Both the position numbers and the translations under genes were made by a program. A DNA stretch of 55,184 nt. Source: Candidatus Buchananbacteria bacterium (GTDB lineage Bacteria; Patescibacteriota; Patescibacteriia; Buchananbacterales; UBA6539). The notes below the pieces were generated by a model that searched no databases, had not been told where the DNA came from, and saw only the letters and a program-made list of their open reading frames with translations. Below, piece after piece: positions 7,228 through 55,121 of this stretch (positions within the stretch are counted from its first letter, which is position 1; each line of letters opens with the position of its first letter). The stretch covers positions 1 through 55,184 of the forward strand of contig JAFGGX010000024.1 in NCBI GenBank assembly GCA_016930315.1, given 5' to 3'.

Positions 7228-7256
7228 TTGACAAAACTACATAAATATGCTATTAT
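7228..7256 (+). promoter_or_regulatory. sigma70-like promoter of GC-rich unit 1
   Basis: TTGACA-N17-TATTAT with a TGC extended -10. Confidence 0.6.
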
Positions 7257-7290
7257 CTTAAGATTGTTCTTTAAAATTTTATTACGTCTA

Positions 7291-7348
7291 TCGATGGTTC
7301 TTTTTAGGGATGATTCATATTTGGGTTATCTCTAAAAAGAACCATCGA
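7291..7348 (+). promoter_or_regulatory. 17-bp perfect stem-loop in the long 5' leader of the 7419 gene
   Basis: tcgatggttctttttag (7291-7307) pairs perfectly with ctaaaaagaaccatcga (7332-7348). A second hairpin, gaagctt-aaa-agcttc, lies downstream. Confidence 0.55.
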
Positions 7349-7418
7349 AAAGGTGGTTTTAGAAGCTTAAAAGCTTCAATCCGGTTTCGGCTGGATAATT
7401 CCCCACAGGTGAAAAGAC

Positions 7419-8384
7419 ATGAAAAGCTACCGTTTCCTCCTCCTCATCGGAATCATCATCGCCGTGGCCACCATGGCCATGAGTCAGTCCACACCCCTCC
7501 CGCCCGAAAGCGACTTTGACTTCACCGTTGTTGTCCGTGACGGAACCAACAAAGGGACGAAAGTTCGCATCATCCGCGGGTCGGACACCGAACCGACCAT
7601 CATCACTGACAACGCCACGGGCGACATCGTCGTCATGACACCCTACTTCACACGTTGGGACTTGAATGACGTCGCCAAGCATGGCATCTTTCTGTACCCC
7701 CCGCCCCGTAAAACCCACCCAGAAAAACCCGGCACAGATCCGAAATGGGCCAATATTATCGAAGTAATCAAAAGCCTCGACAGTGCGGACGGGTTGACGT
7801 CCGCGTCAAGACTCCTACCGCTATTCGACCGGAGTAATGATCCCAAAGTCGTACTTCTCAGGCTGATCAACGCCTATGACTTCAGACTCAGCGCCGAGGT
7901 TTTCGATGTGATCCTCGCTTCTCCACTCTGTGACGGGGAGACTCTTCACGAGATTCTGAGAGTTCACGGAAAGACTGTGAACGAATACGGTGCCTGGATC
8001 GCCGGCAACAAAGCGGAGGCAGAGATCTTCGCCGACCCACGAATCAGGCTTCAGGATATCCTGAAGTATGGTCTCTGGCCTGGAAACCTGCTTCAATGGG
8101 GGGCGATATTGGAAATCTACCGTCGGGGAGATCCAGGGCTGCTCGAAGCCGCCATCAACGTAATGGCTGGCTTCCAAGGCGATGGCATCCCATACATCGC
8201 CTACGATCTACTGAGAAGCTCTCAGCTTCCCAGCCAGATCGCCAGGAAAGCCCTGACTATCAAGCCAGCGGACATTGAGCATGCCGACTACCAGGCGGCT
8301 CATATCCGAGATGCGATCAAGAATGGAATCGGCCTTGAGCAATTCGAGCCAACCCCCACGCCGGCCGTCACCACGATCGAATAA
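7419..8384 (+). CDS. GC-rich orphan secreted or membrane-anchored protein
   Basis: 321 aa. N-terminal signal/anchor MKSYRFLLLIGIIIAVATMAMS. AGGTGA lies 7 nt before the ATG. G/C-ending codons. No motif recognised. Confidence 0.7.
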   Translation: MKSYRFLLLIGIIIAVATMAMSQSTPLPPESDFDFTVVVRDGTNKGTKVRIIRGSDTEPTIITDNATGDIVVMTPYFTRWDLNDVAKHGIFLYPPPRKTHPEKPGTDPKWANIIEVIKSLDSADGLTSASRLLPLFDRSNDPKVVLLRLINAYDFRLSAEVFDVILASPLCDGETLHEILRVHGKTVNEYGAWIAGNKAEAEIFADPRIRLQDILKYGLWPGNLLQWGAILEIYRRGDPGLLEAAINVMAGFQGDGIPYIAYDLLRSSQLPSQIARKALTIKPADIEHADYQAAHIRDAIKNGIGLEQFEPTPTPAVTTIE

Positions 8385-8407
8385 CCACCACATTCCGCCC
8401 TTTCACT

Positions 8408-8466
8408 GTCCCGGCCGCGCGCAAGCAACTCAAACGTTGCACGCGACCGGGACTTCTACTTTTCTA
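8408..8466 (+). terminator. intrinsic terminator of unit 1
   Basis: gtcccgg (8408-8414) pairs with ccgggac (8447-8453), with inner pairing, followed by a T-rich tail. Confidence 0.55.
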
Positions 8467-8565
8467 GACCAAAATTGCTCCAAAAAACCATAAAATAATT
8501 GATTTGCCCCAGGGCATTTTTTTTGTTAAAATAAGGGGAGTAAAATTTACTCCTTTTATTTTTTT

Positions 8566-9105
8566 ATGGCAGAAGAACGCAAACACTATCGCCCTTCCTG
8601 GGACGATTATTTTATGGCAATTACCAAACTAATTGCCAGCCGCAGTACCTGTGATCGGCTCTATACCGGCGCAGTTTTAGTTAAAAATAACCGGATTATT
8701 TCTTCCGGTTACAATGGTTCAGCTCCAGGGCAGCCTCATTGCCTTGATTCCGGCCATTTAATGGAAGAAGGCCACTGTGTGCGCACCATCCACGGTGAGC
8801 ACAATGCTCTGCTCCAAGCCGCCGTTCAAGGTTCAACCAGCACAGTTGGCTCAACTATGTATACTAAATATAGCCCCTGCATCCACTGCACTAAGTACAT
8901 TATTGCTTGCGGCGTTAAACGAGTGGTTTTAGGTAAAATTTACCGCAATTCGCAAGCCGTGGACATGTTAAAAGCCAGTGGCGTTGAAGTTGATGTTTAT
9001 CAACCAAACCCTGAGTGGGAACAAGAAATTATCCAGATTTTTTCCGAAGATATTCCTGACCGAAAAAACGAAGGTGATGTCAAAATGGAGGTAAAAAATG
9101 GGTAA
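8566..9105 (+). CDS. comEB: dCMP deaminase (ComEB family)
   Basis: 179 aa. Zinc motifs HGEHNA and PCIHCTK. Confidence 0.9.
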   Translation: MAEERKHYRPSWDDYFMAITKLIASRSTCDRLYTGAVLVKNNRIISSGYNGSAPGQPHCLDSGHLMEEGHCVRTIHGEHNALLQAAVQGSTSTVGSTMYTKYSPCIHCTKYIIACGVKRVVLGKIYRNSQAVDMLKASGVEVDVYQPNPEWEQEIIQIFSEDIPDRKNEGDVKMEVKNG

Positions 9106-9655
9106 AAAAATTATTTTTGGCTTGGTGGGTCAAATCGCTTCGGGCAAAGACACTGTTGCTGATTATTTAGAAAAAAAATATCAAGCCAAAAGAATCAGTT
9201 TTTCGGGCATGTTGCGCGATATCCTCAATCGTCTATTTCTACCAATCAATCGCAAAAATCTAGTGGCCACTTCCGAAATAATTCGAAAACAATTTGGTCA
9301 AGACCTGATGGCTAAAGTAATTGCTGAAGAGGTAAAAAAATCTGACGCCAAAATCATTTGTCTGCCTAATATTCGGCGCAATCAAGATATTAAATATTTA
9401 TCAAAAATTCCCGGTTTTATTTTGGTCCACATTACCGCTGAGCCAAAAATTAGATACCAAAGATTAATAAACCGCCGTGAAAATATTGATGATAAAAACA
9501 AAACTTGGGCCCAATTTATCCGCGACAGCAAATTACCAACCGAAGTAACGATTAAACAAGTAGCCAAAAAAGCTAAATACACAATTGACAATAACGGCAG
9601 CTTAAACGAACTTCACGAACAAGTCGAAAAAATTCTAAAAAAACACAAAAAATAA
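9098..9655 (+). CDS. P-loop nucleotide kinase (CoaE / dNMP-kinase-like)
   Basis: 185 aa. Walker A motif GLVGQIASGKDT. Overlaps comEB by 8 nt and dut by 1 nt (TAATG), so it is translationally coupled inside the dTTP operon. Confidence 0.6.
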   Translation: MGKKIIFGLVGQIASGKDTVADYLEKKYQAKRISFSGMLRDILNRLFLPINRKNLVATSEIIRKQFGQDLMAKVIAEEVKKSDAKIICLPNIRRNQDIKYLSKIPGFILVHITAEPKIRYQRLINRRENIDDKNKTWAQFIRDSKLPTEVTIKQVAKKAKYTIDNNGSLNELHEQVEKILKKHKK

Positions 9656-10080
9656 TGCAAATCAAAATCAAAAAAACCAAAGATGATGTTAAACTCCCCT
9701 CTTACGCTCACCCGGGTGATGCCGGTCTTGATGTTTATTCTCTAGAAAATTACGAATTAAAGCCTGGCGAGAGACGAATTTTTGATTTAGGTTTTGCCTT
9801 AGAGTTGCCCGAAGATTTTGTCGCTATTGTTAAAGACAAAGGCAGTTTACCGAAACACGGTGGCTTGCATACTATGGGCGGCGTTTTTGATTCCGGCTAC
9901 CGCGGTGAATATAATATTTTGTTGATAAATTTGAGCGACCAATCATACCAAATTGAAGAAGGCGACAAAATTGCTCAACTAGTTATTATTCCCTTTGCTC
10001 GAGCTGAGCTGTTGGAAGTTGAAGAATTAACCGAAAGTAGCCGTGGTGCCGGTTCATTTGGCTCAACTGGCAAAAAATAA
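9655..10080 (+). CDS. dut: dUTP diphosphatase
   Basis: 141 aa. Motifs AGLDV, GVFDSGYRGE and RGAGSFGSTG. Confidence 0.92.
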   Translation: MQIKIKKTKDDVKLPSYAHPGDAGLDVYSLENYELKPGERRIFDLGFALELPEDFVAIVKDKGSLPKHGGLHTMGGVFDSGYRGEYNILLINLSDQSYQIEEGDKIAQLVIIPFARAELLEVEELTESSRGAGSFGSTGKK

Positions 10081-10104
10081 TCCTAATATTTTTAACCTAA
10101 GACT

Positions 10105-11463
10105 ATGCCGTTTGATTCAATCAAACATACAGAAAAATCTCTAACTAACGGCGGGATGGTTTTAATTTTAAACACCGGCGCGGTTATCAACCCAGAAGCC
10201 GAGGCAATGCTTCAAGCGTTGCATTCACGTTCAACCGGCGGCATCAAAGAACATCTGCAAACCCTCGAAAAAAAGGGAGCCGATAAATTTATGGCCAGTT
10301 TTTATGTCGGCTACGGTCATAAATCAATTGGCGATTGCGGCAGCATCACTATTTTTATCGAAGGCGTTTCAATGTTAGCGGCAAAAGCCATCCAAGACTG
10401 GCCACTTTATAGCGGTCAAGAATCATCAACTCGCTATGTTGATTTTTCTAAACAAAAATTTATTGACCCAATCAAAACTACTGAATCAAACAAGCTGCTG
10501 GAAACTTGGCGAACATTTTATTTAGACGGATTAACCCCCGTTCAAGAATATTTAAAAAGTCAATTTCCCATCCAGCCGGACCAAAAAGAATCAACCTATC
10601 TAAAAGCTATCGCCGCTCGAGCCTTTGATATTATGCGCGGCTATCTGCCAGCTGGTGCTTCGACTAATTTAGCCTGGCACACCAATTTACGCCAAGCCGC
10701 TGATAAATTAATGCTATTGCGTCATCATCCGTTAAAAGAAGTCCAGGAATTAGCCGAAACAATCGAGCAGGCTTTAATCGCCGCCCACCCAAGTTCATTT
10801 GAAGCAAAAAGGTACGACGAAACCGAAAACTATAACCAGTTTTGGATGAAAAAATATAACTATTTTGATCAATCGGAAAGTTATGGCGATCAAGTCGCTT
10901 TATTACGCAACGATATCGACACCAAATCATTAGAAAATTATCGAGAAGTATTAGAAAAACGACCACCAAAAACCGAGCTACCAAAATTTCTAGCCGAGTG
11001 TGGTACTCTACAATTTGGTTTTATGCTTGACTTCGGATCGTTTCGCGACATCCAACGTCATCGAGCTGTTAAACAAAGAATGCCGCTAGTAACAACCAAA
11101 CACGGCTTTAATCAATTTTATATCAATTCGCTACCAGAATCTCTAAGGCCAGCGGCGAAAAATTTGCTCGATTCTCAAGCAGAAGAAATAAAAAACCTTA
11201 ATACTACACCAGAGATTGCTCAATACTATACCGCCATGGGTTATAATTTACCAAATAAAGTTACTGGCGATTTGCCTTCGCTGGTTTATTTGGTTGAATT
11301 AAGAGCCACTCGCTTTGTGCACCCAACATTGAGAGACAAAGCGGCTGCCATGGCCGAAATTATTAAAAAAGAATTCGGACCGCTGGGCTTAAAATTACAT
11401 TTAGATAATGAGCCAGGGATTTTTGATATTAAACGCGGTGAACACGATATTGTAAAAAAATAA
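10105..11463 (+). CDS. thyX: flavin-dependent thymidylate synthase, long two-module form
   Basis: 452 aa. The N-terminal half has FIEGVS...SGQESSTRYV (the ThyX-motif tail without RHR). The C-terminal half has FRDIQRHRAVKQ (RHR without the Ser...RY tail). Operon context is dut and tmk. Confidence 0.65.
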   Translation: MPFDSIKHTEKSLTNGGMVLILNTGAVINPEAEAMLQALHSRSTGGIKEHLQTLEKKGADKFMASFYVGYGHKSIGDCGSITIFIEGVSMLAAKAIQDWPLYSGQESSTRYVDFSKQKFIDPIKTTESNKLLETWRTFYLDGLTPVQEYLKSQFPIQPDQKESTYLKAIAARAFDIMRGYLPAGASTNLAWHTNLRQAADKLMLLRHHPLKEVQELAETIEQALIAAHPSSFEAKRYDETENYNQFWMKKYNYFDQSESYGDQVALLRNDIDTKSLENYREVLEKRPPKTELPKFLAECGTLQFGFMLDFGSFRDIQRHRAVKQRMPLVTTKHGFNQFYINSLPESLRPAAKNLLDSQAEEIKNLNTTPEIAQYYTAMGYNLPNKVTGDLPSLVYLVELRATRFVHPTLRDKAAAMAEIIKKEFGPLGLKLHLDNEPGIFDIKRGEHDIVKK

Positions 11464-11500
11464 AAATAAAAAAGAATGGGGTCAGAACAAGTCTGCCCCA
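11464..11500 (-). terminator. intrinsic terminator of the antisense GC-rich gene
   Basis: Minus strand reads tggggcagac-ttgt-tctgacccca followed by ttcttttttattttt. Overlaps the last codons of the gene. Confidence 0.6.
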
Positions 11501-11802
11501 TCATTGTCAGCACCAACGCCGACTAACTCCCCCTCTCCGTCATCGAGACAAGGATCAACCCACGGCCGAGCTTGGCCCTCTGGTCCGCCCAATGGATCAA
11601 GGTCGTCCGTTTCGTCGTCACCACCTCCATTGTCGTCATCCGGCCAATCATCATCGAATGAATCTAAACGACCTTCCGGCGTATCCGTATCTCTGCCGTT
11701 GGCTCGAATGAGTGCTAAGATGGTGAAAACTCCCGCAAACGCTACAACCATTACGCCTACTACCATCATTGCCACACACAGAACGACAATCAACGATTTC
11801 AT
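11482..11802 (-). CDS. GC-rich orphan: N-terminal TM anchor plus poly-acidic tail
   Basis: Start set at MKSLIVVLCVAMMVVGV... because AAGGAGGG lies 9 nt upstream. The tail is rich in D/E/G (DSFDDDWPDDDNGGGDDETDD). Lies antisense between thyX and tmk. Confidence 0.65.
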   Translation of the reverse strand: MKSLIVVLCVAMMVVGVMVVAFAGVFTILALIRANGRDTDTPEGRLDSFDDDWPDDDNGGGDDETDDLDPLGGPEGQARPWVDPCLDDGEGELVGVGADNDGADLF

Positions 11803-11838
11803 CTTCAAAGGCCCTCCTTTCCGGCCGAGTACAAAAAG

Positions 11839-11865
11839 ATTATAATAATTGAATAAAATTTGCAA
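11839..11865 (-). promoter_or_regulatory. promoter of the antisense GC-rich gene
   Basis: Minus strand reads TTGCAA-N15-TATAAT. The spacer is short, so this is less certain. Confidence 0.4.
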
Positions 11866-11881
11866 GTTTAATCAACAAATT

Positions 11882-12541
11882 ATGCCTGATTTTAAAAAAC
11901 CTAAATTAATTGTGATTGATGGCATTGATGGCTCCGGCAAAGCCACTCAGACCAAGCTTTTAATTGAAAAATTACGCTTAGAGCAAATCCCGACCGAAAC
12001 GATTGATTTCCCCCAATACCAAAACAATTTTTTTGGCGGGATGGTTAGGCAATACCTGGATGGTAAATTTGGCACCCCAACTCAAATCAATCCAAAATTA
12101 GCCTCAACTCTTTATGCGGCTGATCGCTGGGAATCATCACAAAAAATTAAAGACTGGATTAACGAAAATAAACTTGTAGTAGTTGACCGCTACTCCACCA
12201 GCAATCTGATTCATCAAGGCGCTAAAATGACCGAAGACCAACTTGATGAATTCATCGGTTGGATCGACCAATTAGAATTTAAAACTTTTCAAATCCCTCA
12301 GCCCGATTTGGTTATCTTCCTGCATGTTGATCCCAAAACTTCTTATAATTTAATTACTAAACGCGGCCAGGGCCACGACGGTCACGACACCATGGAACAT
12401 TTAACTGTCGCTGAAAAAAGATGCCTATATATGGCCAAAAAGCTCGGCTGGCAAACCGTTGAATGCTGCCAAGATGGCCAGATTCTGCCCATTGAAAAAA
12501 TCCAGGAAAAAATCTGGGCAATAGTTAAAGACAACATCTAA
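11882..12541 (+). CDS. tmk: thymidylate kinase
   Basis: The ATG at 11882 (MPDFKKPKLIVIDGIDGSGKATQ) is preferred over the TTG at 11849. P-loop and a DRY-type motif (VVDRYSTSN). Confidence 0.88.
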   Translation: MPDFKKPKLIVIDGIDGSGKATQTKLLIEKLRLEQIPTETIDFPQYQNNFFGGMVRQYLDGKFGTPTQINPKLASTLYAADRWESSQKIKDWINENKLVVVDRYSTSNLIHQGAKMTEDQLDEFIGWIDQLEFKTFQIPQPDLVIFLHVDPKTSYNLITKRGQGHDGHDTMEHLTVAEKRCLYMAKKLGWQTVECCQDGQILPIEKIQEKIWAIVKDNI

Positions 12542-12570
12542 CAAAAAGATAAAATAACTTCAAAAATTAA

Positions 12571-12726
12571 CCGCGGGGGGCTTGGGGGCGAGTGTTGAGC
12601 CTAACTAAAGCCCCGAGAGTCGAAGCGATAGGGGCTTTAGTGGGTAAAAGACACAAACGATAAATGAGCGCTCGCGAATCACGAGCCCCCAAATTTCTTT
12701 GTCCACTTTCTGAATCCAGAAAGTGG
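12571..12726 (+). ncRNA. unclassified GC-rich structured RNA element, copy 2 of 2
   Basis: Homolog of 3735-3891. Proposed helices: 12582-12589/12685-12692, 12592-12596/12650-12654 (contains a U-G pair possible only on the + strand) and 12604-12614/12631-12641. A terminal hairpin at 12702-12726 is followed by cctttttt. Confidence 0.55.
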
Positions 12727-12740
12727 AATTCCTTTTTTCC

Positions 12741-12769
12741 TTGATTTTTTAGGCCTTTTTCGCTAATAT
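12741..12769 (+). promoter_or_regulatory. promoter of gatB (predicts a leaderless mRNA)
   Basis: TTGATT-N17-TAATAT. The gatB ATG begins only 8 nt after the -10 hexamer. Confidence 0.5.
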
Positions 12770-12777
12770 ACTTATAT

Positions 12778-14310
12778 ATGAATTTAACTCCAATTATCGG
12801 CTTAGAAATCCACGTCCAACTGAAAACGAAGTCAAAAATGTTTTGTGGCTGTGATAATTCCGGTGAAAACCAACCACCAAATATCACCGTTTGCCCGGTT
12901 TGCATGGGTCACCCAGGCGTTTTACCGGTAGCCAACCGCGAGGCAATCAAATGGACAGTGATGGCTGGCTTGGCTTTAAAGTGCCAAATCCCCGACTCTT
13001 TTCAATTTGAACGTAAAAACTATTTTTATCCAGACCTACCAAAGGGCTATCAAATTACTTCTTCAACCAAGCCACCGTGTATTGGCGGCTATTTAGAAAT
13101 CGACACGCCGGAAGGCAAAAGAAAACTGAGGCTCCATCACATTCACTTAGAAGAAGATGCCGCTAAAAACTTTCATTCAACCGATGGTAAAGACACTTTA
13201 GTTGACTATAATCGTTCCAGCACACCGCTAATGGAAATTGTCACCGAGCCAGATATGCGCAACCCCCAAGAAGCTAAGACCTTTTTGCAAGAGCTGCGTT
13301 TAATTATGCGTCACTTGGGCATTTCTAGTGCTGACATGGAAAAAGGTCACCTGCGCTGTGATGCCAATATTTCTTTGACCGATCAGATTAACGAAACAAA
13401 TGGCGAAATTAAATTTTACCCAAAAACCGAAATCAAAAACCTCAACTCATTCAAAGCCGTTGAGAAAGCTTTGGAATATGAAATCAAACGCCAAACTAAA
13501 ATGTGGCAAGACGGCAAAACCCCTCATCAAGCCACCCGCGGCTGGGATGAAAACAAAGGCGTCACCGAAGAACAACGCACCAAAGAAGAAGCCCACGACT
13601 ACCGCTATTTCCCCGAACCAGACATTCCACCAATTAATCTAAACAAAGATAAATCCGGCATTGATGTTGAAGCAATCAAACAAACAATGATTGAACTGCC
13701 CCAAGCCAAACGCCAACGCTTTGTCACCGAATACGATCTACCATTAGCCAACGCCAAAATTCTAACCGACGACAAGGGACTGGCCGTATTTTTTGAACAA
13801 GCTTTATCAGAATTGAGAGCCTGGCTAATTGCCCTTGACGATGTCGAAGGCACTCAAGAAGAAATCTGGCAAAAAAATAAAGGCACATTAGCCAAACTAA
13901 CCAGCAATTGGCTGATCAACAAATTAATGGCTATTGCGATTAAAGAAAACAAAGAGGTTTATTCTGGTGAAAATATTACCCCGGAAGATTTTGCTGAATT
14001 TATTACTCTAGTGCATACCCGTAAAGTTAATTCCACCATTGCTCAACAAATTTTAGAAAAAATGTTTTTAACCGGCAAAGACCCACACGAAATTTTGGAA
14101 CAAGATTTAGGTGGCAACCAGCAATCCAACGACAACCTCACTGAAATTATCCAACAGGTAATCAGCCAAAATCAAGATCAGGTGAATCAATATAAAGCCG
14201 GCAAAGAAACCGTTATCCAATTTTTAATTGGCCAAGTAATGAAATTAACCAAGGGCCAAGCCGACCCTCAAGAAGCCAAGGATTTATTAATTAATGAATT
14301 AAAAAAATAA
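12778..14310 (+). CDS. gatB: Asp/Glu-tRNA amidotransferase subunit B
   Basis: 510 aa. IGLEIHVQL, CPVCMGHPGVLP, NYFYPDLPKGYQISQ-like block, and a C-terminal YqeY-like tail. Confidence 0.95.
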   Translation: MNLTPIIGLEIHVQLKTKSKMFCGCDNSGENQPPNITVCPVCMGHPGVLPVANREAIKWTVMAGLALKCQIPDSFQFERKNYFYPDLPKGYQITSSTKPPCIGGYLEIDTPEGKRKLRLHHIHLEEDAAKNFHSTDGKDTLVDYNRSSTPLMEIVTEPDMRNPQEAKTFLQELRLIMRHLGISSADMEKGHLRCDANISLTDQINETNGEIKFYPKTEIKNLNSFKAVEKALEYEIKRQTKMWQDGKTPHQATRGWDENKGVTEEQRTKEEAHDYRYFPEPDIPPINLNKDKSGIDVEAIKQTMIELPQAKRQRFVTEYDLPLANAKILTDDKGLAVFFEQALSELRAWLIALDDVEGTQEEIWQKNKGTLAKLTSNWLINKLMAIAIKENKEVYSGENITPEDFAEFITLVHTRKVNSTIAQQILEKMFLTGKDPHEILEQDLGGNQQSNDNLTEIIQQVISQNQDQVNQYKAGKETVIQFLIGQVMKLTKGQADPQEAKDLLINELKK

Positions 14311-14315
14311 TTAAT

Positions 14316-14582
14316 ATGAGAAGAGGACCAGAGATAAGAGACTCCGTTGGAGATTTTGGAACAGAATCTAAGATTAGACGAGATATGAGGCTAATAAAAA
14401 AAGAGTTGGAAGATAAATTCGATGGGGTTGAACATTATGTAGCTCATCTTAAAACAGATCGTGCGGAGTTAAATAGAGTCCAGCTAGCAGTTGAAAGATA
14501 TCTTGGAGATGAAGACCCAAATGATGAAATAGCAAAAGAAATTCAAAAATCAATATTAATGGTAGAGACTGGCGCAAACTAA
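14316..14582 (+). CDS. small acidic helical orphan, member 1 of a tandem array
   Basis: 88 aa. AGA/ATA-rich codon usage unlike the backbone. C-terminal block VERYLGDEDPNDEIAKEIQKSI is shared in pattern with the next three ORFs. Confidence 0.5.
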   Translation: MRRGPEIRDSVGDFGTESKIRRDMRLIKKELEDKFDGVEHYVAHLKTDRAELNRVQLAVERYLGDEDPNDEIAKEIQKSILMVETGAN

Positions 14583-14624
14583 ATAAAAGCAAAAAACAAG
14601 CATAAAAACGTTAACCATAAATAT

Positions 14625-14903
14625 ATGCCCGAATACGACAAACCATTAATAGTACCTGAAGCCCTCAAGCCAATCGAGAGGATTAATCTAGACATCGCTG
14701 AACAGGCAACCCAAGCCTTAGACATCTTGAAGAAATCAGGCATCTCTTCTATAGTAGATATACAGGAAACAAAAAAAGACTGGTTCATTTCTCTAGCCGA
14801 AATGGTTCTTCAGCAATATACTGACATTGATCAACTCACAGGCCCAGATGACAAGCAGGCCTTGACATTGGCCAAAGATATCATTGATAATTTAAAAAAA
14901 TAA
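14625..14903 (+). CDS. small acidic helical orphan, member 2
   Basis: 92 aa. Start context TAAATATATGCCCGAA is nearly identical to member 3. C-terminal block QQYTDIDQLTGPDDKQALTLAKDIIDNL. Confidence 0.55.
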   Translation: MPEYDKPLIVPEALKPIERINLDIAEQATQALDILKKSGISSIVDIQETKKDWFISLAEMVLQQYTDIDQLTGPDDKQALTLAKDIIDNLKK

Positions 14904-14907
14904 ATAT

Positions 14908-15258
14908 ATGCCAGAAACTTTAGCTCCATGGGATCAAGAACAATTTAAAAATTTAGAAAAAGAAAAAATAGAAGATTCATTAACGCCAAAAGAAGGGGCG
15001 GCCAAACGAAGGGTTGGCGAAAACCTCCTAACCAGAGAAATAAATTCAAAAAAAAATATAGATCAAATTATTGATCAAATTCATTCGGAAAAATTCAGTG
15101 GCAACACAAAAAAATATCTAGAATCTCTAAACCCAGACGAAAGGCAGACAGTTGTCGCCCAAGCTCACAATTATATTGAACTATTTGGCAGTGAGAATTA
15201 CCAAGACAAAAGGGCTATTTTCGCTGTTGATATAATTAGTTCGGCGAAAAAAATCTAA
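14908..15258 (+). CDS. small acidic helical orphan, member 3
   Basis: 116 aa. Start context TAAATATATGCCAGAA. C-terminal block HNYIELFGSENYQDKRAIFAVDIISSA. Confidence 0.55.
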   Translation: MPETLAPWDQEQFKNLEKEKIEDSLTPKEGAAKRRVGENLLTREINSKKNIDQIIDQIHSEKFSGNTKKYLESLNPDERQTVVAQAHNYIELFGSENYQDKRAIFAVDIISSAKKI

Positions 15259-15275
15259 AAAATAATTATAATTTT

Positions 15276-15632
15276 ATGCCAAGCCCAGAAACTTCAAATC
15301 AACCAATCTTAGATCCCGATAATGTAGAAAGTGCAATTGACAAAATTTTTGATAATGAAAGTGAGCCAGAAGAAACCGACGCTATAACCCAAGAAATTTT
15401 GAAAGATAGAAGAAATGAAGAAGTAGCAAAAGCAAAAGAAAAAGATAAAATCAGAGAACGCCTAAATGAAATTTATATTAAATATACGGCCAAACCGTTA
15501 GATATACCGACAGAAGAAGTTCAATCTGTCGCCAAAGACGCAATGGAATACATGAAGTTGTTTAAACCAGAAGAAAATCCTGGCCTATACCAATTTGCCA
15601 CTGAGACCATCCGGGCTGCTAATTTAGAATAA
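15276..15632 (+). CDS. small acidic helical orphan, member 4
   Basis: 118 aa. C-terminal block MEYMKLFKPEENPGLYQFATETIRAA. The 3' end overlaps the end of convergent miaA by 14 nt. Confidence 0.55.
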   Translation: MPSPETSNQPILDPDNVESAIDKIFDNESEPEETDAITQEILKDRRNEEVAKAKEKDKIRERLNEIYIKYTAKPLDIPTEEVQSVAKDAMEYMKLFKPEENPGLYQFATETIRAANLE

Positions 15633-16530: not shown

Positions 16531-16541
16531 AATAAAACTTT

Positions 16542-16626: not shown

Positions 16627-16658
16627 GATACTTAACTTAAGTAAAATCATCGGATAGA

Positions 16659-47953: not shown

Positions 47954-48211
47954 GTGAGCAGAGCAACTGAAGACCGTTTAGTAGTAGTTGTAGGAGAACG
48001 AAGTATAACAGATTGTATTAAACGGCTAAACCGACTCAGCAAAGATGCCGGCATTCTAGGTGGCAAAAGAACAAAGGGGCCACGCCATCAGACCAGAAGT
48101 CAAAAACGCCGGAATAAAGACTACAGAGCCAGAAAACGCGTGGAACTTCGTAAACGAAAAACAAATCAGGCCAAAAACAGAAGAGATAAAGGAGGGAAAA
48201 CATCTCCTTGA
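47954..48211 (+). CDS. rpsU: 30S ribosomal protein bS21-like
   Basis: 85 aa with a GTG start. GAAAGGGGG lies 9 nt upstream. ITDCIKRLNRLSKDAGIL...RHQTRSQKRRNK aligns with the bS21 core FDVALRRFKRSCEKAGVL...EKPTTERKRAKA. Confidence 0.65.
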   Translation: MSRATEDRLVVVVGERSITDCIKRLNRLSKDAGILGGKRTKGPRHQTRSQKRRNKDYRARKRVELRKRKTNQAKNRRDKGGKTSP

Positions 48212-48994: not shown

Positions 48995-49190
48995 CAAGGA
49001 TAAATCCCATTAATCGGCCAGGCGTGGAAGCCTGGCCTCTCCAGCAGTGTACCAACGCGTAGGCGAGGAATTTATCCTCGCCGTAAAATATTATCGCGGA
49101 ATCCAGTAGCCGCAGAACAATGTTCTGCAGCTACTGGATAATATTTTATTTTTTTTGCGTAGCCGACCCTTTATGGGTCGGAGACAAGTA
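48995..49190. repeat. cluster of nested GC-rich hairpins
   Basis: ccaggc-gtggaa-gcctgg; ggcgagga-attta-tcctcgcc; tccagtagccgcagaaca-a-tgttctgcagctactgga (18-bp arms with one mismatch, or 9-bp perfect arms gcagaacaa/tgttctgc(a) centred at 49114); gccgaccc-ttta-tgggtcgg. Confidence 0.6.
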
Positions 49191-49210: not shown

Positions 49211-50788
49211 CTAAAAACTTTTTCGTCGTAAAAGCCGATTGTAGGTGATGGCGAAACGATGCGCTTCATCTCTGATTTTTTGGACTAATTTCAAAGCATC
49301 AGATTTACGGTCTAATTTGATTGATTCGGAATTACCAGGCCGGTAAATTTCTTCTTGTTTTTTAGCCAAAGCCGCAATCGGAATAGTTAAACCTAATGAT
49401 CGTAAGGCCGCCAGCCCAGCACTCATCTGCGGTTTGCCGCCATCAATTAAAATTAAATCTGGCAAATCAGCTTTATCAATTTTCAATCGGTAATACCGCC
49501 GATAAATAATTTCGCGCATGGCATCAAAATCAGATTGGCCCGTCTGCCATTTAATTTTAAACCGCCGATAATTATTTTTGTCTGGCAAACCATCTTTAAA
49601 GCAAACCATCGAACCAACAATAAAACTGTCACCCAAATTAGAAACATCAAAACATTCAATCACCGTCGGCAGCTTTGGTAAACTCAAACTCTCCTGCAAT
49701 TCAAACAAAGCACTGTCGCCTCTTTTCAAACTAACTAAAATATTTTTTTTGACTAATTCTAAAAGCTGCAAATTGGTCCCGCGCTTAGCCATTTTAATCC
49801 GGACTTTTCTGCCAGCCAAGCGAGTTAAATAACTTTCAATTGTAGTTTTTTCCGGCAACTCAACAGGCGCCACCACTTCTTGCGGTAATTCATGACTGTA
49901 ATAATATTGTTTAACAAAACCGGCTAATAATTCCGGCAAATCTTGTTTGATTGATATGGCAAAAGAAAACTGTTTCCGACCAGAAACCACGCCTTTGTTG
50001 ATATTAAACAACTGAACAATAAATTTATTCGCGGTGATTATGCCATTAATTACATCTTGATCGTAATTTTTTTTGAGGTGAATCTTTTGTTCCGATTGTA
50101 AATTAACCAACGCTTTAATTTGATCGCGTCGTAATTTTGCTAGTTCATATTTTTCTTGACTAGAAAACTGGTCCATTTCTTTTTTTAAATCAACAATTAA
50201 CTTCTCGACCTTTCCTTGCAATAGCATCCGCGCCCGATCTAAGTCTTTTTTATATTCTTCCAAACTAATAATCCGCGTCCAGGGAGGAACCGAACACTTA
50301 ATTTTATATTTACCGGCAACGGCCTGAGGTTTAGTTTTGCCCACTCGCAACTTAAACAAAGTATTAGCCAGTCTGATTAAATTTCTTCTAGCTGTACCCC
50401 AAACATAAGGGCCATAAACTTCGTCTTTGTTTTTAAAAATTCGTACCGTTTCTAATCGCGGAAATAGTTCATTAGTAACTTTAATGTAAGCGTAACGCAC
50501 TCCACCTTTTAGCTCCAGATTATATTGTGGCTGCTGATCCTTAATTAGTCGCGCTTCTAAAAGTAAAGCTTCAACTTCCGAATCAGTGACAATGTAATCT
50601 AGGTTTTTAATTTTACTAACCAGCTGCTTGGTCTTGGGATCAACAATATTTTTATTGAAATATGAGCTGACTCGTTTTTTTAAATCTTTTGCTTTGCCAA
50701 TATAAATAATCTCATCGGCTCTATTTTTGAATAAATAGCAACCAGGGTGATTGGGTAAATTTCTTATTTTTTCTTTGACTATTGACAT
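49211..50788 (-). CDS. uvrC: excinuclease ABC subunit C
   Basis: Start set at the ATG at 50788 (MSIVKEKIRNLP...) rather than the TTG at 50797. GIY-YIG N-terminus (GCYLFKN...IIYIGKAKDLKKR) and a C-terminal endonuclease domain. Confidence 0.93.
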   Translation of the reverse strand: MSIVKEKIRNLPNHPGCYLFKNRADEIIYIGKAKDLKKRVSSYFNKNIVDPKTKQLVSKIKNLDYIVTDSEVEALLLEARLIKDQQPQYNLELKGGVRYAYIKVTNELFPRLETVRIFKNKDEVYGPYVWGTARRNLIRLANTLFKLRVGKTKPQAVAGKYKIKCSVPPWTRIISLEEYKKDLDRARMLLQGKVEKLIVDLKKEMDQFSSQEKYELAKLRRDQIKALVNLQSEQKIHLKKNYDQDVINGIITANKFIVQLFNINKGVVSGRKQFSFAISIKQDLPELLAGFVKQYYYSHELPQEVVAPVELPEKTTIESYLTRLAGRKVRIKMAKRGTNLQLLELVKKNILVSLKRGDSALFELQESLSLPKLPTVIECFDVSNLGDSFIVGSMVCFKDGLPDKNNYRRFKIKWQTGQSDFDAMREIIYRRYYRLKIDKADLPDLILIDGGKPQMSAGLAALRSLGLTIPIAALAKKQEEIYRPGNSESIKLDRKSDALKLVQKIRDEAHRFAITYNRLLRRKSF

Positions 50789-50815
50789 TTTAAACAAAAT
50801 ATAATATAAAATATA
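50778..50815 (+). repeat. 38-bp perfect direct repeat, copy 1 (uvrC start codon plus + strand promoter)
   Basis: actattgacattttaaacaaaatataatataaaatata. The + strand reads TTGACA (50782-50787)-N17-TATAAA. Confidence 0.9.
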
Positions 50816-50836
50816 TAATATTCCACTTCCACAAGG

Positions 50837-51028
50837 ATGGCAAAGATGGATAAACCGCTCTTTTTACCGTACGACGCATCAGGCACAACATACCAAGATG
50901 CCAACTATGAATTCTGCACCGACTGTAGCAGTTCGATTCACGAAAACCCGCAAACTAAATCACATACTTGCTGCCTTAATCTATCTTTTCGACCAGATCA
51001 CAGACCGATGAGAAATCACGACCTTTAA
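50837..51028 (+). CDS. GC-rich orphan mini-protein (63 aa; alternative start 50846)
   Basis: AAGGA is correctly spaced for the second ATG at 50846. Contains CTDC...HTCC. Promoter and terminator flank it. Confidence 0.5.
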   Translation: MAKMDKPLFLPYDASGTTYQDANYEFCTDCSSSIHENPQTKSHTCCLNLSFRPDHRPMRNHDL

Positions 51029-51173: not shown

Positions 51174-51211
51174 ACTATTGACATTTTAAACAAAATATAA
51201 TATAAAATATA
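51174..51211 (+). repeat. 38-bp perfect direct repeat, copy 2 (promoter of the next cassette)
   Basis: Identical to 50778-50815. TTGACA at 51178-51183. Confidence 0.9.
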
Positions 51212-51238
51212 CAACCAATCCACTGGAGGTACATACGC

Positions 51239-51472
51239 ATGGGAACTAAAGACGGTCTTCCATCCTATGGCGACGATAAAAACGAAGGGCTATTACGCAT
51301 GGGAACTAAAGAGTCTTATCCATCTTGTAAACCCAAGCCGTCGAAAGAAAGTCCCGTTGAAAGGCGCCCATACCCCGAAGATAAGAGCAATGGAATGTGC
51401 TCAGGATGCGGAGCATTTCTCGATAATGAAGGTTTCTGTCACTTCTGTAACCCAAATGGCTGGCTTCGCTAA
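51239..51472 (+). CDS. GC-rich orphan mini-protein with a C-terminal zinc-ribbon-like CxxC...CxxC
   Basis: 77 aa. GGAGG lies 9 nt upstream. CSGCGAFLDNEGFCHFC. The N-terminus has an internal 60-nt duplication that includes the start codon. Confidence 0.55.
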   Translation: MGTKDGLPSYGDDKNEGLLRMGTKESYPSCKPKPSKESPVERRPYPEDKSNGMCSGCGAFLDNEGFCHFCNPNGWLR

Positions 51473-51566: not shown

Positions 51567-54437
51567 TTTCTTTAAAACTACACTCAAGTACTTACCAGTA
51601 TAAGACCACTTGGCACATTTAGCAATTTTTTCCGGCGTACCTTCGGCTACCACTCGCCCACCTTTGTCCCCGCCCTCTAGGCCTAAATCAACAATCCAAT
51701 CGGCAGATTTAATCACATCTAAATTGTGTTCAATTACCAAAACCGAATTACCTTTATCAACCAACCGATTAAAAACTTCCACTAATCTGCTGACATCGTC
51801 AAAATGCAATCCCGTTGTCGGCTCATCCAAAATATATAGCGCATTGCCGGCCTTACGCGACAACTCGGAAGTCAGCTTAATTCGCTGAGCTTCACCACCC
51901 GACAAAGTAGTGGCGCTTTGACCCAACTGAATGTAATCCAAACCGACATCAAAAAGAGTTTGCATCTTATGAGCGATGGCTGGGACATTTTTGAAAAATT
52001 CTAGCGCTTCTTCCACGGTCATTTTCAATACATCGGCAATCGTTCTATTTTTGTATTTAATACTTAAAGTTTCTTCGTTGTATCTGGTTCCTTTGCAACG
52101 CTGACATTCAATATAAACATCGGGCAAAAAATTCATCTCAATTTTTTTCACCCCATCGCCTTCGCATTCTTCGCACCGGCCGCCGCTGACATTAAAACTA
52201 AACCGACCCGGCTTATAACCACGCGCCCGGGCTTCTTTAGTGGACGAAAACAACTCCCGAATCTGAGTAAACACTCCAATGTAAGTGGCCGGATTTGACC
52301 GCGGTGTTCTGCCAATCGGCGACTGATCAACCATAATTACTTTTTCTAGCTTGCCATAACCTTTAATATTTTTGTGCTGACCTGGCCGCTCGCTGGTAGC
52401 ATAAAAAATCTTGTGCAAGGCCCGATACAAAATGTCATCGATTAAAGTCGACTTGCCCGAACCAGAAACACCGGTCACACAAGTTAAAACTTTCAATGGA
52501 ATTTTAACATCAATATTTTTTAAGTTATGTTGCTCAGCGCCAAAAATTTCCAGCCAATCAAAAATTCGCCGTCGATTTTCCGGAATAGCAATCTTTTTTT
52601 TGCCCGAAATATACTGACTGGTCAAAGAATTTTTGGCGCTGGCTAACTGCTTTGGCGTACCAGCAAAAATCAATTCCCCACCGTGCCGGCCAGCCCCAGG
52701 TCCTAAATCAACCACATGATCAGCTTCTAAAATAGTTTCTTCGTCGTGCTCAACCACTACCACAGTATTACCTAAATCACGCAATTGCTTTAAAGTGGCA
52801 ATCAATTTCTGGTTATCTCTTTGATGCAACCCAATTGACGGCTCATCTAAAATATACAACACGCCGCGCAATTCTGAACCAATTTGAGTAGCCAAGCGAA
52901 TCCGCTGAGCTTCCCCACCCGACAAACTACCGGCCGGACGATTTAAAGTTAAATAATCAAGCCCAACATTAATCAAAAAATTCAACCGATTGGTAATTTC
53001 TTTTAAAATTAAATTGGCAATTGCCAACTGTTCTGTATTCAACTTTAAGCTCTTAAAAAAAGCCACCAACTGTTCAATAGACATTTCGGCCACTTCCCAA
53101 ATATTATAACCATTATCAACTTCTTTTTTAGTTTTAATCTTTTTATTTCCCAATGTCACCGCTAAAATTTCTGGTCGAAATCTTTTGCCTTGGCAGGCCG
53201 GACATGGGCCCATGCGCATAAATTTGGCAATTTCATTTCGTCGATATTCGGATTCAGTTTGTTTATAAAGCCGATCCAGTTGTGGAATTACTCCTTCAAA
53301 TGTGCCCACATATTGATAGCTGCTGTTGCCACTACGACTGCCAATTTCAAACTTCATCTGCTTGTCGCTGCCAAACAAAATTATGTCTTTAATATTCCGC
53401 GGTAAATCATTCCAAGCTAAATTTAAATCAAACTTATAATGCTGGGCCAATGATTCCAAATGCTGATAGCGCCAACCTTCTCCATAGCTACGCCAAGGCT
53501 TGACTGCACCCTGAGCCACCGACAAACTTTTATCCGGCACAATTAAATCTTCATCAAATTCTTGCGAAAACCCCAAACCATGACAAGCCTCACAAGCGCC
53601 AAACGGCGAATTAAACGAAAACATCCGCGGCTGCAGTTCACCAATTGAAATATCGCAATCAGTACAGGCGTTGGCTTGGGAAAACATTTTTTCTTTTTCA
53701 TCAATCAAAACCAAAACCAACCCGTCAGCCAAATTGACGGCCGTTTCAACTGCTTCGTTTAGTCTGGATTTATTTTTAGTTTCCACTGGCAAGCGATCAA
53801 TAATAATTTCCAAATTATGCTTAATCTGCTTGTTAAGTTTAATTGTTTGCCAATCAGCCAATTGATAAACCTGACCATCAACTCGAACCCGAGCATAACC
53901 TTGATTGTGCCAATCTTTCAATAATTGTTCATAAGTGCCTTTCTTGGCTCTGACTACCGGTGCTAAAATTTGTAACTTAGCGCCTTTTTTTAAACTCAAC
54001 AAATTTTTAACAATTGATTCAACCGACTGAAAACTAATCTTTTTACCGCAGTTCGGACAATGGGGCGTGCCAACCCGAGCGTAAAGCAAACGCAAATAAT
54101 CGGCAATTTCGGTAATGGTGCCAACCGTTGACCGCGGATTTTTGGAAACCGATTTTTGTTCAATCGAAATGGCCGGAGACAAACCGGAAATCGAATCAAC
54201 GTCAGGTTTGTTCATCAAACCCAAAAACTGCCGCGCATAGGCTGACAAACTTTCAACGTAGCGTCTTTGTCCTTCGGCATAAAGGGTATCGAACGCCAAA
54301 GTCGATTTACCCGACCCAGACAACCCGGTGATAACTGTTAACTTATCAATTGGAATATCGACATTGATATTTTTTAGGTTATGCTGTCGAGCGCCCTTAA
54401 TTTTAATATATTGTTTTTTATTATTTGCCATATCCAT
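51564..54437 (-). CDS. uvrA: excinuclease ABC subunit A
   Basis: 957 aa. Two ABC ATPase modules (GLSGSGKST, GVSGSGKST, LSGGEAQR twice) and zinc-finger Cys clusters. Confidence 0.97.
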   Translation of the reverse strand: MDMANNKKQYIKIKGARQHNLKNINVDIPIDKLTVITGLSGSGKSTLAFDTLYAEGQRRYVESLSAYARQFLGLMNKPDVDSISGLSPAISIEQKSVSKNPRSTVGTITEIADYLRLLYARVGTPHCPNCGKKISFQSVESIVKNLLSLKKGAKLQILAPVVRAKKGTYEQLLKDWHNQGYARVRVDGQVYQLADWQTIKLNKQIKHNLEIIIDRLPVETKNKSRLNEAVETAVNLADGLVLVLIDEKEKMFSQANACTDCDISIGELQPRMFSFNSPFGACEACHGLGFSQEFDEDLIVPDKSLSVAQGAVKPWRSYGEGWRYQHLESLAQHYKFDLNLAWNDLPRNIKDIILFGSDKQMKFEIGSRSGNSSYQYVGTFEGVIPQLDRLYKQTESEYRRNEIAKFMRMGPCPACQGKRFRPEILAVTLGNKKIKTKKEVDNGYNIWEVAEMSIEQLVAFFKSLKLNTEQLAIANLILKEITNRLNFLINVGLDYLTLNRPAGSLSGGEAQRIRLATQIGSELRGVLYILDEPSIGLHQRDNQKLIATLKQLRDLGNTVVVVEHDEETILEADHVVDLGPGAGRHGGELIFAGTPKQLASAKNSLTSQYISGKKKIAIPENRRRIFDWLEIFGAEQHNLKNIDVKIPLKVLTCVTGVSGSGKSTLIDDILYRALHKIFYATSERPGQHKNIKGYGKLEKVIMVDQSPIGRTPRSNPATYIGVFTQIRELFSSTKEARARGYKPGRFSFNVSGGRCEECEGDGVKKIEMNFLPDVYIECQRCKGTRYNEETLSIKYKNRTIADVLKMTVEEALEFFKNVPAIAHKMQTLFDVGLDYIQLGQSATTLSGGEAQRIKLTSELSRKAGNALYILDEPTTGLHFDDVSRLVEVFNRLVDKGNSVLVIEHNLDVIKSADWIVDLGLEGGDKGGRVVAEGTPEKIAKCAKWSYTGKYLSVVLKK

Positions 54438-54451
54438 ATTTTAGTTAATTT

Positions 54452-54480
54452 ATAATAGTACTCAATATGTTATTTATCAA
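54452..54480 (-). promoter_or_regulatory. promoter of uvrA (short, SD-less leader)
   Basis: Minus strand reads TTGATA-N17-TATTAT. The ATG lies 14 nt after the -10. Confidence 0.5.
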
Positions 54481-55032
54481 CAACTCCTTAAATTTTTAGC
54501 TTATTTCGGTGAGGCCATCTACGAAAACCGGATCAACCAGGGCTTGACCCAGGATCAGTTCGGTCACAAGTATGACATCTCCGGACCCGCGGTCTTCAAG
54601 TTCGAAAAAGGGTACGTGAAACCCTCGCTCGACTTGTGGCTCAAGATGTCCGCGGACTTCAAGATCCCGGAGAAAACCGCCGTCCTGATGTGGCTGAAGA
54701 CCCGCCTGCCCGAAAAGTACCAGAACCTGATCCAGATCAAGAACCCGCAAGCGGAGGCCGAGATCCCCGAAGCCGTCCGCCCCAGCCCCCGAGCCGTGGA
54801 CTACACCAAGTTCGAGGACCGCAAGGAGATGCGCAAGGTTGCCAACAACGACCGCAAACTCCCCAAAGGACTCCGCGAGTTCCTCAAGGACGACGAAATC
54901 TGGGTGATCTACAAGCCGACCGGTGCGGAAATCAACTTCCTCCGCGACGCCTTCGGCAAACTCGGCCAGGGCTCGATCGATGCCTTCCGCGAGGCCCTGC
55001 GGGCCATGCGAAGCTTCAAGACCGAAAAGTAG
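54467..55032 (+). CDS. GC-rich XRE-family HTH protein; the intact reading frame needs a -1 shift or a 1-nt indel at 54490-54497
   Basis: The HTH (FGEAIYENRINQGLTQDQFGHKYDISGPAVFKFEKGYVKPSLDLWLKMS) starts at about 54505 with no in-frame ATG/GTG/TTG upstream. The TTG at 54544 would delete helix 1. The ATG at 54467 is in the +1 frame and runs into A_AAT_TTT_TAG. Confidence 0.5.
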
Positions 55033-55071
55033 CCAGATCGGCTACCGCTACCAAAAAGGTGGCCCATCTTT

Positions 55072-55121
55072 CCCCCAGGACTAACTGCGACACGTTGCAG
55101 TGGTTCTGGGGGCTTTTTTTA
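55072..55121 (+). terminator. intrinsic terminator
   Basis: cccccag (55072-55078) pairs with ctggggg (55106-55112), with an inner hairpin, followed by T7. Confidence 0.7.

Follow-up and report, generated by a model that had tools for sequence, protein, structure and literature searches.

Contig JAFGGX010000024.1 of a Candidatus Buchananbacteria bacterium (assembly GCA_016930315.1) carries an AT-rich backbone of housekeeping genes interrupted by short GC-rich blocks. We favour, with a probability of about 65%, the reading that these blocks hold accessory genes of foreign, GC-richer origin, differing in age and source, which were placed in a small number of permissive inter-operon gaps, that is, transferred into hotspots free of mobile genetic elements (MGEs). 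For one block, a helix-turn-helix (HTH) regulator gene, capture from a GC-rich bacterium outside the Candidate Phyla Radiation (CPR) can be taken as proven on its alignments. The mosaic as a whole is a known kind of horizontal gene transfer (HGT) mosaic and involves no new insertion system. The 55,184-bp stretch analysed (the window) is the entire metagenome-assembled contig at NCBI; an annotation made earlier from its letters alone is called the original prediction below.

The host is an AT-rich, ultra-small CPR (Patescibacteria) bacterium related to Ca. Buchananbacteria; the nearest relatives of its helicase, at 57–67% amino acid identity, occur in metagenome-assembled genomes labelled Patescibacteria group or Candidatus Buchananbacteria. 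The backbone consists of informational and repair genes (gyrB, secE, nusG, rplK, rplA, dCMP deaminase, dut, ThyX-like, tmk, gatB, miaA, thrS, dnaE, pheT, pheS, a UvrD-helicase/PD-(D/E)XK nuclease, the F-type atp operon, tatD, metG, rsmI, uvrC and uvrA), and Pfam confirmed the identities that had been given to the core genes flanking the blocks. The 44 backbone genes have a GC content of 0.390 ± 0.032 and a GC content at third codon positions (GC3) of 0.362 ± 0.055, with a maximum of 0.484; intergenic GC is 0.359.

For each proposed block, z and p values (Table 1) were derived from 5000 in-frame sub-windows of equal length taken from backbone genes. The strong blocks sit 3–9.5 standard deviations above backbone GC3, which supports import; the four open reading frames (ORFs) in 34901–37218 have GC3 values of 0.54–0.64 (z +3.3 to +4.9). 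A two-state hidden Markov model recovered the same main blocks and exceeded a one-state model by 277 log-likelihood units (1.1 for shuffled sequence). The GC mosaic described in the original prediction is thus real for about 7 of its 14 listed segments, whereas about five are not compositional outliers: its proposed GC3 test separates the strong blocks from the backbone (z +3.3 to +9.5) and finds no difference for five others. Long antisense ORFs, cited there as an independent sign, do stack in the blocks, but as a mere by-product of GC richness, because stop codons are scarce in GC-rich DNA. In the block genes GC1 and GC2 are shifted along with GC3; their proteins contain elevated proportions of Cys, Trp, Pro, Ala and Arg. 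Codon usage varies from block to block (Ile-ATC 50–100%; C3, cytosine at third positions, 0.26–0.53), and this heterogeneity points to several sources rather than one donor.

The clearest case of import is the HTH block near the contig end. Its translation has 319 homologues, of which the named ones all belong to Ca. Sumerlaeota, and its best match, P0129 (179 aa), is 89% identical at the amino acid level (P-numbers denote homologous proteins; L-numbers denote fetched contigs or stretches, namely Logan contigs, relatives and homologue loci). Window positions 54506–55034 align without gaps to L062 (GC 0.636) at 83% nucleotide identity, and the block is 76.5% identical to L063–L066 (GC 0.57–0.58). 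P0129 is encoded on a 16.8-kb contig of GC 0.636 with cytochrome bd oxidase, two-component and ABC1-kinase genes, and P0132 (75% identical) on contigs of GC 0.57–0.58, adjoining the same ABC1 kinase. Because this kinase context recurs in those contigs, the gene is, on its neighbourhood, native to a GC-rich (58–64% GC) non-CPR lineage. We infer a Sumerlaeota-like donor.

The HTH alignment runs from donor codon 5–6 (MPNII|GEAIY...) to the stop codon: residues 5–179 of P0129 are covered, and the match falls short of full length, lacking the ATG and the N-terminal MPNI(I). Upstream, the frame runs into AT-rich DNA with no in-frame ATG, GTG or TTG before TTG 54544, and a start there would remove HTH helix 1. 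Because the junction cuts the ORF, it is compatible with a ~0.6-kb fragment having been joined illegitimately but not with site-specific cassette delivery. On the window branch, with L063 as outgroup, 14 synonymous and 2 non-synonymous codon changes were counted, with 6 GC-to-AT against 7 AT-to-GC changes. As no AT-ward drift is visible, the gene is, by its substitution pattern, a recent arrival with no amelioration yet, and purifying selection acted over most of the branch, presumably within the donor lineage. Capture from a GC-rich donor, which had been offered as one interpretation of all the blocks, is thereby shown directly for this one; nothing supports the accompanying suggestion that the donor was the host of an episymbiont.

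The second line of evidence comes from the interval between tatD and the UvrD-nuclease helicase. In relatives that keep tatD on the fetched stretch, tatD is followed by 4–9 kb of GC-rich genes and then by the helicase, and across 12 relatives both this interval and the gap on the pheS side of the helicase differ in content and length. The bioenergetic modules found in the interval (Table 1) appear to behave as interchangeable cargo. On the pheS side, the distance from the helicase to the homologue of 30211–30603 ranges from 418 to 3171 bp among relatives; most of them carry a 98-aa and a ~500-aa gene there and some add GC-rich or GIY-YIG ORFs, while the window has the orphan gene 30853–31590. 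In each of the 13 genomes the island had a higher GC3 than the backbone (difference +0.05 to +0.28, mean +0.165), with no significant correlation between the two across these genomes (r = 0.41, p = 0.16). Between reciprocal best hits the median identity was 39% for island genes and 61% for backbone genes. Judged from these alignments, the tatD–helicase interval is a conserved, variable hotspot common to the family.

Within this hotspot the window carries a PyrF gene and a divergent PyrE-like gene. PyrF scored 186.4 bits against TIGR02127 (cut-off 110.6), with residues 4–269 aligned to profile positions 1–258 of 261. The PyrE-like protein gave 34.9 bits against pyrE_Therm (cut-off 150) and no Pfam match; the partners of PyrF in relatives have VEDVITTGGT- or HVEELMTTAGT-type phosphoribosyl pyrophosphate-binding motifs or a PF00156 match. 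Homologues of both genes lie directly upstream of the helicase in L003, L016 and L044, with PyrF alone in L007 and the phosphoribosyltransferase (PRTase)-like gene in L006. The PyrF homologues beside the helicase in L003, L007, L016 and L044 are 34–45% identical to that of the window, and the PRTase-like homologues in L044, L016, L006 and L059 27–37%. L059, a Rifle groundwater contig, holds the same pair at GC 0.53 against a flank GC of 0.39. An alternative pair, a PF00156 PRTase with a shorter PyrF, occupies the same place in L009, L010 and L043, and further divergent versions occur in L005 and L031. PyrF identities between genomes are discordant with helicase identities.

Outside these genomes, the best PyrF matches reach 41–48% identity (57% over a fragment) and come mostly from GC-rich Xanthomonadales or Burkholderiales, at which level a recent donor is rejected. 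Three of the best matches lie, respectively, on a gammaproteobacterial-type contig of 63% GC, an uninformative contig of 49% GC and a CPR-like contig. The original prediction had counted this UMP-synthesis pair among the insertions. The pair is not private to the window: it is found next to this helicase in five or more family-level relatives as well as in the Rifle contig, and its nearest homologues are CPR-like. Conservation in place with matches inside the lineage, named there as a finding that would speak for ordinary lineage genes, therefore applies in part to the pyr pair.

These observations give some weight to a different explanation, in which the GC-rich genes, or at least the pyr pair and the hotspot genes, are long-term residents whose high GC is maintained by a local process such as GC-biased gene conversion in a recombination hotspot or selection on these genes, so that the GC signal would not indicate a recent arrival. 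The pair occurs at the same locus in L003, L006, L007, L016, L044 and L059, island GC3 lies above backbone GC3 in every genome compared, and PyrF has no close GC-rich donor. The pyrE/pyrF genes of L009, L010 and L043, in particular, have diverged like the backbone (58–68% identity, compared with 55–65% for helicase, tatD and pheS and 80% for metG) and are GC-rich all the same. A slight rise in GC3 is also seen in the helicase codons beside the island. However, the border is a sharp step rather than a gradient: the first 80 helicase codons are raised by just +0.05 to +0.08 on average, and the gradient that would be the signature of biased gene conversion was discarded on this ground. The pyr genes of L016 have a backbone-like GC3 of 0.33–0.34, so high GC is not required at this locus. 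At least two types of PyrF (a ~237-aa IWVALD-type and a ~280-aa LCVGLDP-type) occur there, with identities that disagree with those of the helicase. The HTH block proves that GC-rich DNA enters from outside, and the accompanying shift of GC1 and GC2, with the amino acid enrichment noted above, is as expected from a GC-richer genome. We consider long residence under such a local process an unlikely explanation of the blocks.

A related idea, which we advance tentatively and regard as improbable, is that the hotspot is more than a passive dump, with vertically co-diverging residents such as pyrE/pyrF of L009, L010 and L043 held 5–28 GC3 points above the backbone over family-level divergence. Genes held GC-rich in this way would imply either a dedicated GC-rich pool that keeps re-seeding the locus or a process, such as GC-biased gene conversion at a recombination hotspot, that raises GC locally, and GC composition would then mark residence in the hotspot rather than recent arrival. 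Possible causes of the persistence are repeated re-seeding, genes that are younger than they appear because their donors are unsampled, or a local force of the kind just named.

The other large coding blocks contain two orphan genes. The 321-aa product of 7419–8384, with an N-terminal signal or transmembrane helix followed by a mostly helical region, had no homologue among 5.8 billion clusters, and the 245-aa product of 30853–31590 matched only itself among 1.84 billion representatives in a full HMMER search. Neither has a Pfam, PHROG or NCBIfam match, and the earlier statement that the block products are mostly orphans is borne out. By our own calculation, the chance of ORFs this long at 52–55% GC is about 3e-6 (321 aa) and 5e-5 (245 aa) per frame start, and in both genes GC1 and GC3 exceed GC2, with GC3 highest. 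Because of these low odds and this codon-position periodicity, both are likely to be genuine genes whose origin is unsampled. Their AlphaFold models, built from single sequences, had predicted local distance difference test scores of 43 and 36, too low to support a fold search.

Nearly every block had been described as a complete transcription unit. Judged by consensus matches, this holds for 7419–8384, where the only convincing predicted promoter was found (TTGACA-N17-TATTAT, 11/12 matches, extended −10 TG) and the leader contains a perfect 15-bp hairpin (7293–7307/7334–7348). The pyr operon and the mini-ORF pair are each preceded by a weaker predicted TTGACT-N17-TAnnnT site, and terminator-like hairpins follow most strong blocks (8410–8451, 31609–31636, 34864–34831, 44837–44873 and 55072–55120), those after 31590, 34901, 44802 and 55032 being strong. 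It does not hold for 44332–44802, the tail of an operon, or for the 5'-truncated HTH block; for 30853–31590, which is antisense to its neighbours, no promoter passed the scan. Over window positions 1–20000, promoter-like matches numbered 50, compared with 45.4 ± 6.0 in shuffled sequence, i.e. no excess. AT-rich promoters and GC hairpin terminators would be the recipient's ordinary punctuation rather than parts of a mobile cassette. The 44332–44802 product matches Pro_CA_2 weakly, as a beta-carbonic-anhydrase-like protein (27.9 bits, cut-off 30), and two distant relatives, L014 and L020, carry weak homologues next to the helicase.

A dedicated mobile system (phage morons, an integron-like system or a new recombinase-free device) delivering complete promoter–ORF–terminator units would account for the several single-gene blocks with their own terminator, three of them with a plausible promoter, and for a composition unlike the flanks, as in morons. 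We judge it very improbable. The flanks are housekeeping rather than phage genes, one block is an operon tail and another is truncated inside its ORF, and codon usage is heterogeneous among the blocks. The original prediction saw no mobility genes, and scans of the block proteins and unknown ORFs against Pfam, PHROG and NCBIfam agree, with no integrase or transposase domain; comparison of the block borders revealed no shared repeat family and no attC-like repeat, and integron or MITE-like borders were dismissed accordingly. A phage origin was likewise discarded, as PHROGs were negative beyond a generic HTH match and the HTH family has no relative in IMG/VR; with no phage context either, the label of phage morons given to the blocks was the wrong category.

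That the mosaic is an assembly or binning chimera, with reads of a GC-rich organism mixed into a CPR contig, might be suspected from its metagenomic source and from the position of the most extreme block, the HTH gene, only 150 bp off the contig end, but has next to no likelihood: AT-rich backbone lies on both sides of every block within one contig, the same pattern occurs at the same locus in relatives from other studies, and Logan contigs, an independent assembly of run SRR13394437, cross both borders of four blocks at 99.97–100% identity, on which chimeric joining there, the doubt that had been raised about the junctions, is rejected as very unlikely. As a separate observation, the NCBI contig and Logan contig L067 end at the identical base (55184), in very AT-rich DNA 70 nt beyond the HTH terminator; this shared end suggests a repeat or strain-variable region just past it.

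Under the favoured reading, import of GC-richer genes into permissive gaps, the HTH gene would be a recent capture in which illegitimate recombination cost the gene four or five codons at its start; the mini-ORF unit and both orphan ORFs would be younger accessory genes from unsampled donors, and the PRTase-like/PyrF pair would be part of an old, family-wide hotspot between tatD and the UvrD-nuclease helicase whose content turns over. DNA may have entered by natural transformation and been first inserted by illegitimate or homology-facilitated recombination, and relatives may since have exchanged or replaced it through homologous double crossovers in the core genes on either side; entry, insertion and spread would all be possible without an integrase or transposase.

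Several points weigh against this interpretation. A donor lineage was identified for the HTH block only, and the foreign origin of the two large orphans is argued from composition alone, with no homologue anywhere searched. The best non-CPR matches of PyrF are only about 43% identical, and in a neighbour-joining tree it groups with CPR-like sequences on long branches, not inside a GC-rich donor clade. The pyrE/pyrF genes of L009, L010 and L043 are GC-richer than their own backbones (by +0.26 GC3 in L010) at a divergence matching the backbone, at which simple amelioration should have erased a donor signature. For this contig, the steps of transformation and flank recombination are themselves inferential. 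Finally, the syntenic comparison of relatives covers only the surroundings of the helicase, with the rplA|comEB, thyX|tmk and uvrA-side gaps outside it; for the 5' third of the window, scanning metagenomes with the ThyX-like protein gave no relative whose synteny could be used.

The contig provides an example of gene gain without mobile elements in ultra-small, probably competent bacteria. It offers a mapped junction where a regulator gene originating in an unrelated GC-rich phylum was inserted and lost its start codon, and a many-species hotspot that swaps F-ATPase, V-ATPase and H+-pyrophosphatase modules together with a two-step UMP salvage pair. It also marks a limit of composition-based island calling: GC richness lasts in genes that have diverged like the backbone, and so cannot be read simply as recent arrival. 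If this persistence reflects biased gene conversion, the locus would be a useful natural test case; otherwise it is an ordinary HGT mosaic.

Table 1 Blocks, predicted units, hotspot cargo and junction-spanning contigs (z and p relative to backbone sub-windows)
Sequence	Coordinates	Strand	Composition	Class	Feature
Window	1033-1443			marginal	
Window	7419-8384	+	GC 0.55, GC3 0.66, z +6.8	strong	Orphan ORF 1
Window	7228-8451	+			Orphan unit 1: promoter-like site 7228-7256; leader ~160 nt; Shine-Dalgarno (SD) site AGGTGA; ORF 7419-8384; imperfect GC hairpin 8410-8451
Window	11482-11802	-	GC 0.53, GC3 0.48 (z +1.9), GC1 0.69	weak	
Window	19134-19372	+	GC 0.54, z +3.4	strong	Non-coding
Window	19134-19375	+	GC-rich		Non-coding, between GNAT gene and thrS promoter; ends in long hairpin and U7
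Window	20270-20470	+	GC3 0.36	backbone-like	
Window	20677-20964	+	GC 0.39	backbone-like	
Window	30853-31590	+	GC3 0.60, z +5.0	strong	Orphan ORF 2
Window	30853-31636	+			Orphan unit 2: SD site AGGAGG; ORF 30853-31590 (245 aa); terminator 31609-31636 (12 pairs, 8 GC)
Window	34831-35376	-			Mini-ORF unit: promoter-like site TTGACT-N17-TAATTT; terminator 34864-34831 (13 pairs, 9 GC)
Window	34901-35050	-	GC3 0.64	strong	
Window	35017-34901	-			Mini-ORF, 38 aa, very basic; SD site read
Window	35090-35275	-	GC3 0.63	strong	
Window	35275-35090	-			Mini-ORF, 61 aa, Cys-rich, basic; SD site read
Window	35488-36363	-	GC3 0.57, z +4.9	strong	pyrF, orotidine-5'-phosphate decarboxylase subfamily 2 (TIGR02127, PF00215)
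Window	36436-37218	-	GC3 0.54, z +3.8	strong	
Window	36436-37319	-			Divergent PyrE-like phosphoribosyltransferase, 260 aa, first gene of pyr pair; promoter-like site TTGACT-N17-TAATCT
Window	44332-44802	+	GC3 0.54, z +3.3	strong	
Window	44332-44873	+			156-aa gene at end of atp operon, 31 nt past atpC, without own promoter; terminator 44837-44873
Window	44897-45016			marginal	
Window	47954-48211		GC3 0.30	backbone-like	Weak Ribosomal_S21 match
Window	50837-51028	+	GC3 0.44, p 0.19	backbone-like	
Window	51239-51472	+	GC3 0.41, p 0.26	backbone-like	
Window	54505-55032	+	GC3 0.86, z +9.5	strong	
Window	54506-55120	+			XRE/HTH_3 regulator gene, 5' truncated; terminator-like hairpin 55072-55120
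Window	37516-44300				Hotspot cargo: F-type atp operon, pyr block on one side, 44332-44802 on the other
L007	3026-5071				Hotspot cargo: H+-pyrophosphatase
L010	5909-7954				Hotspot cargo: H+-pyrophosphatase
L031	2235-4274				Hotspot cargo: H+-pyrophosphatase
L003	6-6545				Hotspot cargo: V/A-type ATPase operon
L006	664-7340				Hotspot cargo: V/A-type ATPase operon
L016	1408-6209				Hotspot cargo: V/A-type ATPase operon
Relatives					Hotspot cargo: HAD hydrolases, CoA-transferase, GFO/IDH/MocA oxidoreductase, AMP-binding enzyme
Logan L002	window 4916-8532				99.97%, one mismatch; spans borders of 7419-8384
Logan L068	window 23540-33869				100%; spans borders of 30853-31590
Logan L001	window 43326-45601				100%; spans borders of 44332-44802
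Logan L067	window 54262-55184				100%; spans borders of HTH block

Among the segments of weaker deviation, 11482–11802, between thyX and tmk, encodes a 106-aa protein with one transmembrane helix followed by an Asp/Gly-rich acidic tail, preceded by the SD site GGAAAGGAGGG and followed after its stop by a T-run alone. The acidic tail explains its high GC1, and its deviation appears largely driven by amino acid composition. The product of 47954–48211 is probably ribosomal protein S21. Two small GC-rich intergenic patches (16999–17113 and 49015–49137) are hairpin clusters. The mini-ORF units 50837–51028 and 51239–51472 are paralogous and compositionally ordinary; upstream of them lies a duplicated 41-nt promoter-like segment (TTGACA ... 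TATAAT; 50778–50818 and 51174–51214, 98% identity), and the second unit has an internal 31-nt repeat. On the minus strand, 45016–44897 is a 39-aa Cys/Gly-rich ORF with two SEC-C-type CxCxSGK...CC metal-binding motifs, starting 4 nt past the tatD stop; the original prediction had counted it among its intermediate blocks. The ThyX-like protein (10105–11463, plus strand) has 452 aa, with the Thy1 domain confined to residues 41–229; its C-terminal half has no Pfam match and is 58–68% identical (77% in a partial match) across six metagenome loci.

The window has no tRNA gene, no Rfam family reaches its gathering score there, and structured RNA genes were set aside as a source of the GC richness: a permissive scan returned only a truncated T-box leader outside the blocks. 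This leader (20014–20167, minus strand), which precedes the GNAT gene (19919–19374) and thrS, reached 31.5 bits in a local scan (E 1.6e-5; gathering score 93) and keeps the canonical AAUUUGGGUGGAACCG box, with most of Stem I gone. The non-coding block 19134–19375 has no Rfam family; it folds at −90.5 kcal/mol on the plus strand (z −4.25; minus strand z −1.04), and this better plus-strand fold and the terminal hairpin with U7 make 19140–19375 a candidate small RNA antisense to the GNAT–thrS transcription unit. A GC-rich structured element of ~155 nt is present in two copies on the plus strand, upstream of secE (3740–3895) and of gatB (12571–12728). Its 85-nt core is 89% identical between copies, compensatory changes occur in three pairs, and a terminator hairpin comes after the element, whose closing stem is UUGGGGGC/GCCCCCAA. 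It has no Rfam match and may be either a cis-regulatory leader or a small RNA.

The only selfish-looking genes of the window, a 90-aa GIY-YIG gene and a 23S_rRNA_IVP-family gene, are both AT-rich and lie outside the blocks. The latter (28667–29026, 119 aa) occupies the pheT–pheS gap, with 42-nt inverted repeats (79% complementary) on its two sides (window 28623–29132); in relatives this gap is empty or holds a GIY-YIG gene or another small ORF, and the insert has the look of a small selfish element in one more variable gap. Stand-alone GIY-YIG nuclease genes of 90–100 aa occur at window 16659–16931 (minus strand) and at L004 13159–13461 and 17649–17939, those of relatives falling within the variable gaps near the helicase and pheS. 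No other nuclease-type gene is a candidate for causing DNA breaks locally.

Compared with known systems, the blocks resemble phage morons as small units with their own terminator, sometimes their own promoter, and a composition unlike their flanks. Morons lie between prophage genes, whereas the flanks here are ribosomal, tRNA-synthetase, ATP-synthase and repair genes with no phage family match. Acquired genes are usually AT-richer than the core, and GC-rich islands are known from Haloquadratum walsbyi, which has a low-GC genome and lives among GC-rich relatives. The direction of the contrast is the same (an AT-rich recipient with imports from a GC-richer community), in another domain and at another scale, so that the parallel is an analogy only.

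A closer counterpart is provided by the MGE-free HGT hotspots of Oliveira, Touchon, Cury and Rocha (2017), which are over-represented in naturally transformable species and whose flanking core genes recombine more (PMC5635113). Shared features are accessory genes concentrated in few intervals between core genes, turnover of content, the lack of integrases and transposases, repair or recombination genes as flanks (here the UvrD-nuclease helicase, TatD and UvrA/UvrC), and a proposed route of transformation with homologous recombination in the flanks; Saccharibacteria have been shown to be naturally competent (PMC10633639). The two differ in that the present comparison is at the family level (57–67% helicase identity) rather than within species, with flank recombination only proposed, and in that the islands here are GC-richer than the core. 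The insertion mechanism had been called unexplained; the filling of such hotspots by recombination is already described in that work, and islands in Patescibacteria have been reported as well (PMC12455944). In groundwater Patescibacteria, up to 13% of genome length was attributed to HGT and genomic islands, and exchange of a lysR regulator was described for Patescibacteria and Omnitrophota (PMC12455944). Those islands belong to the same phylum and a similar habitat, deviate in composition and carry metabolic and regulatory genes, and to them the present contig adds a mapped junction, in the truncated HTH gene, and a many-species hotspot with lasting GC richness.

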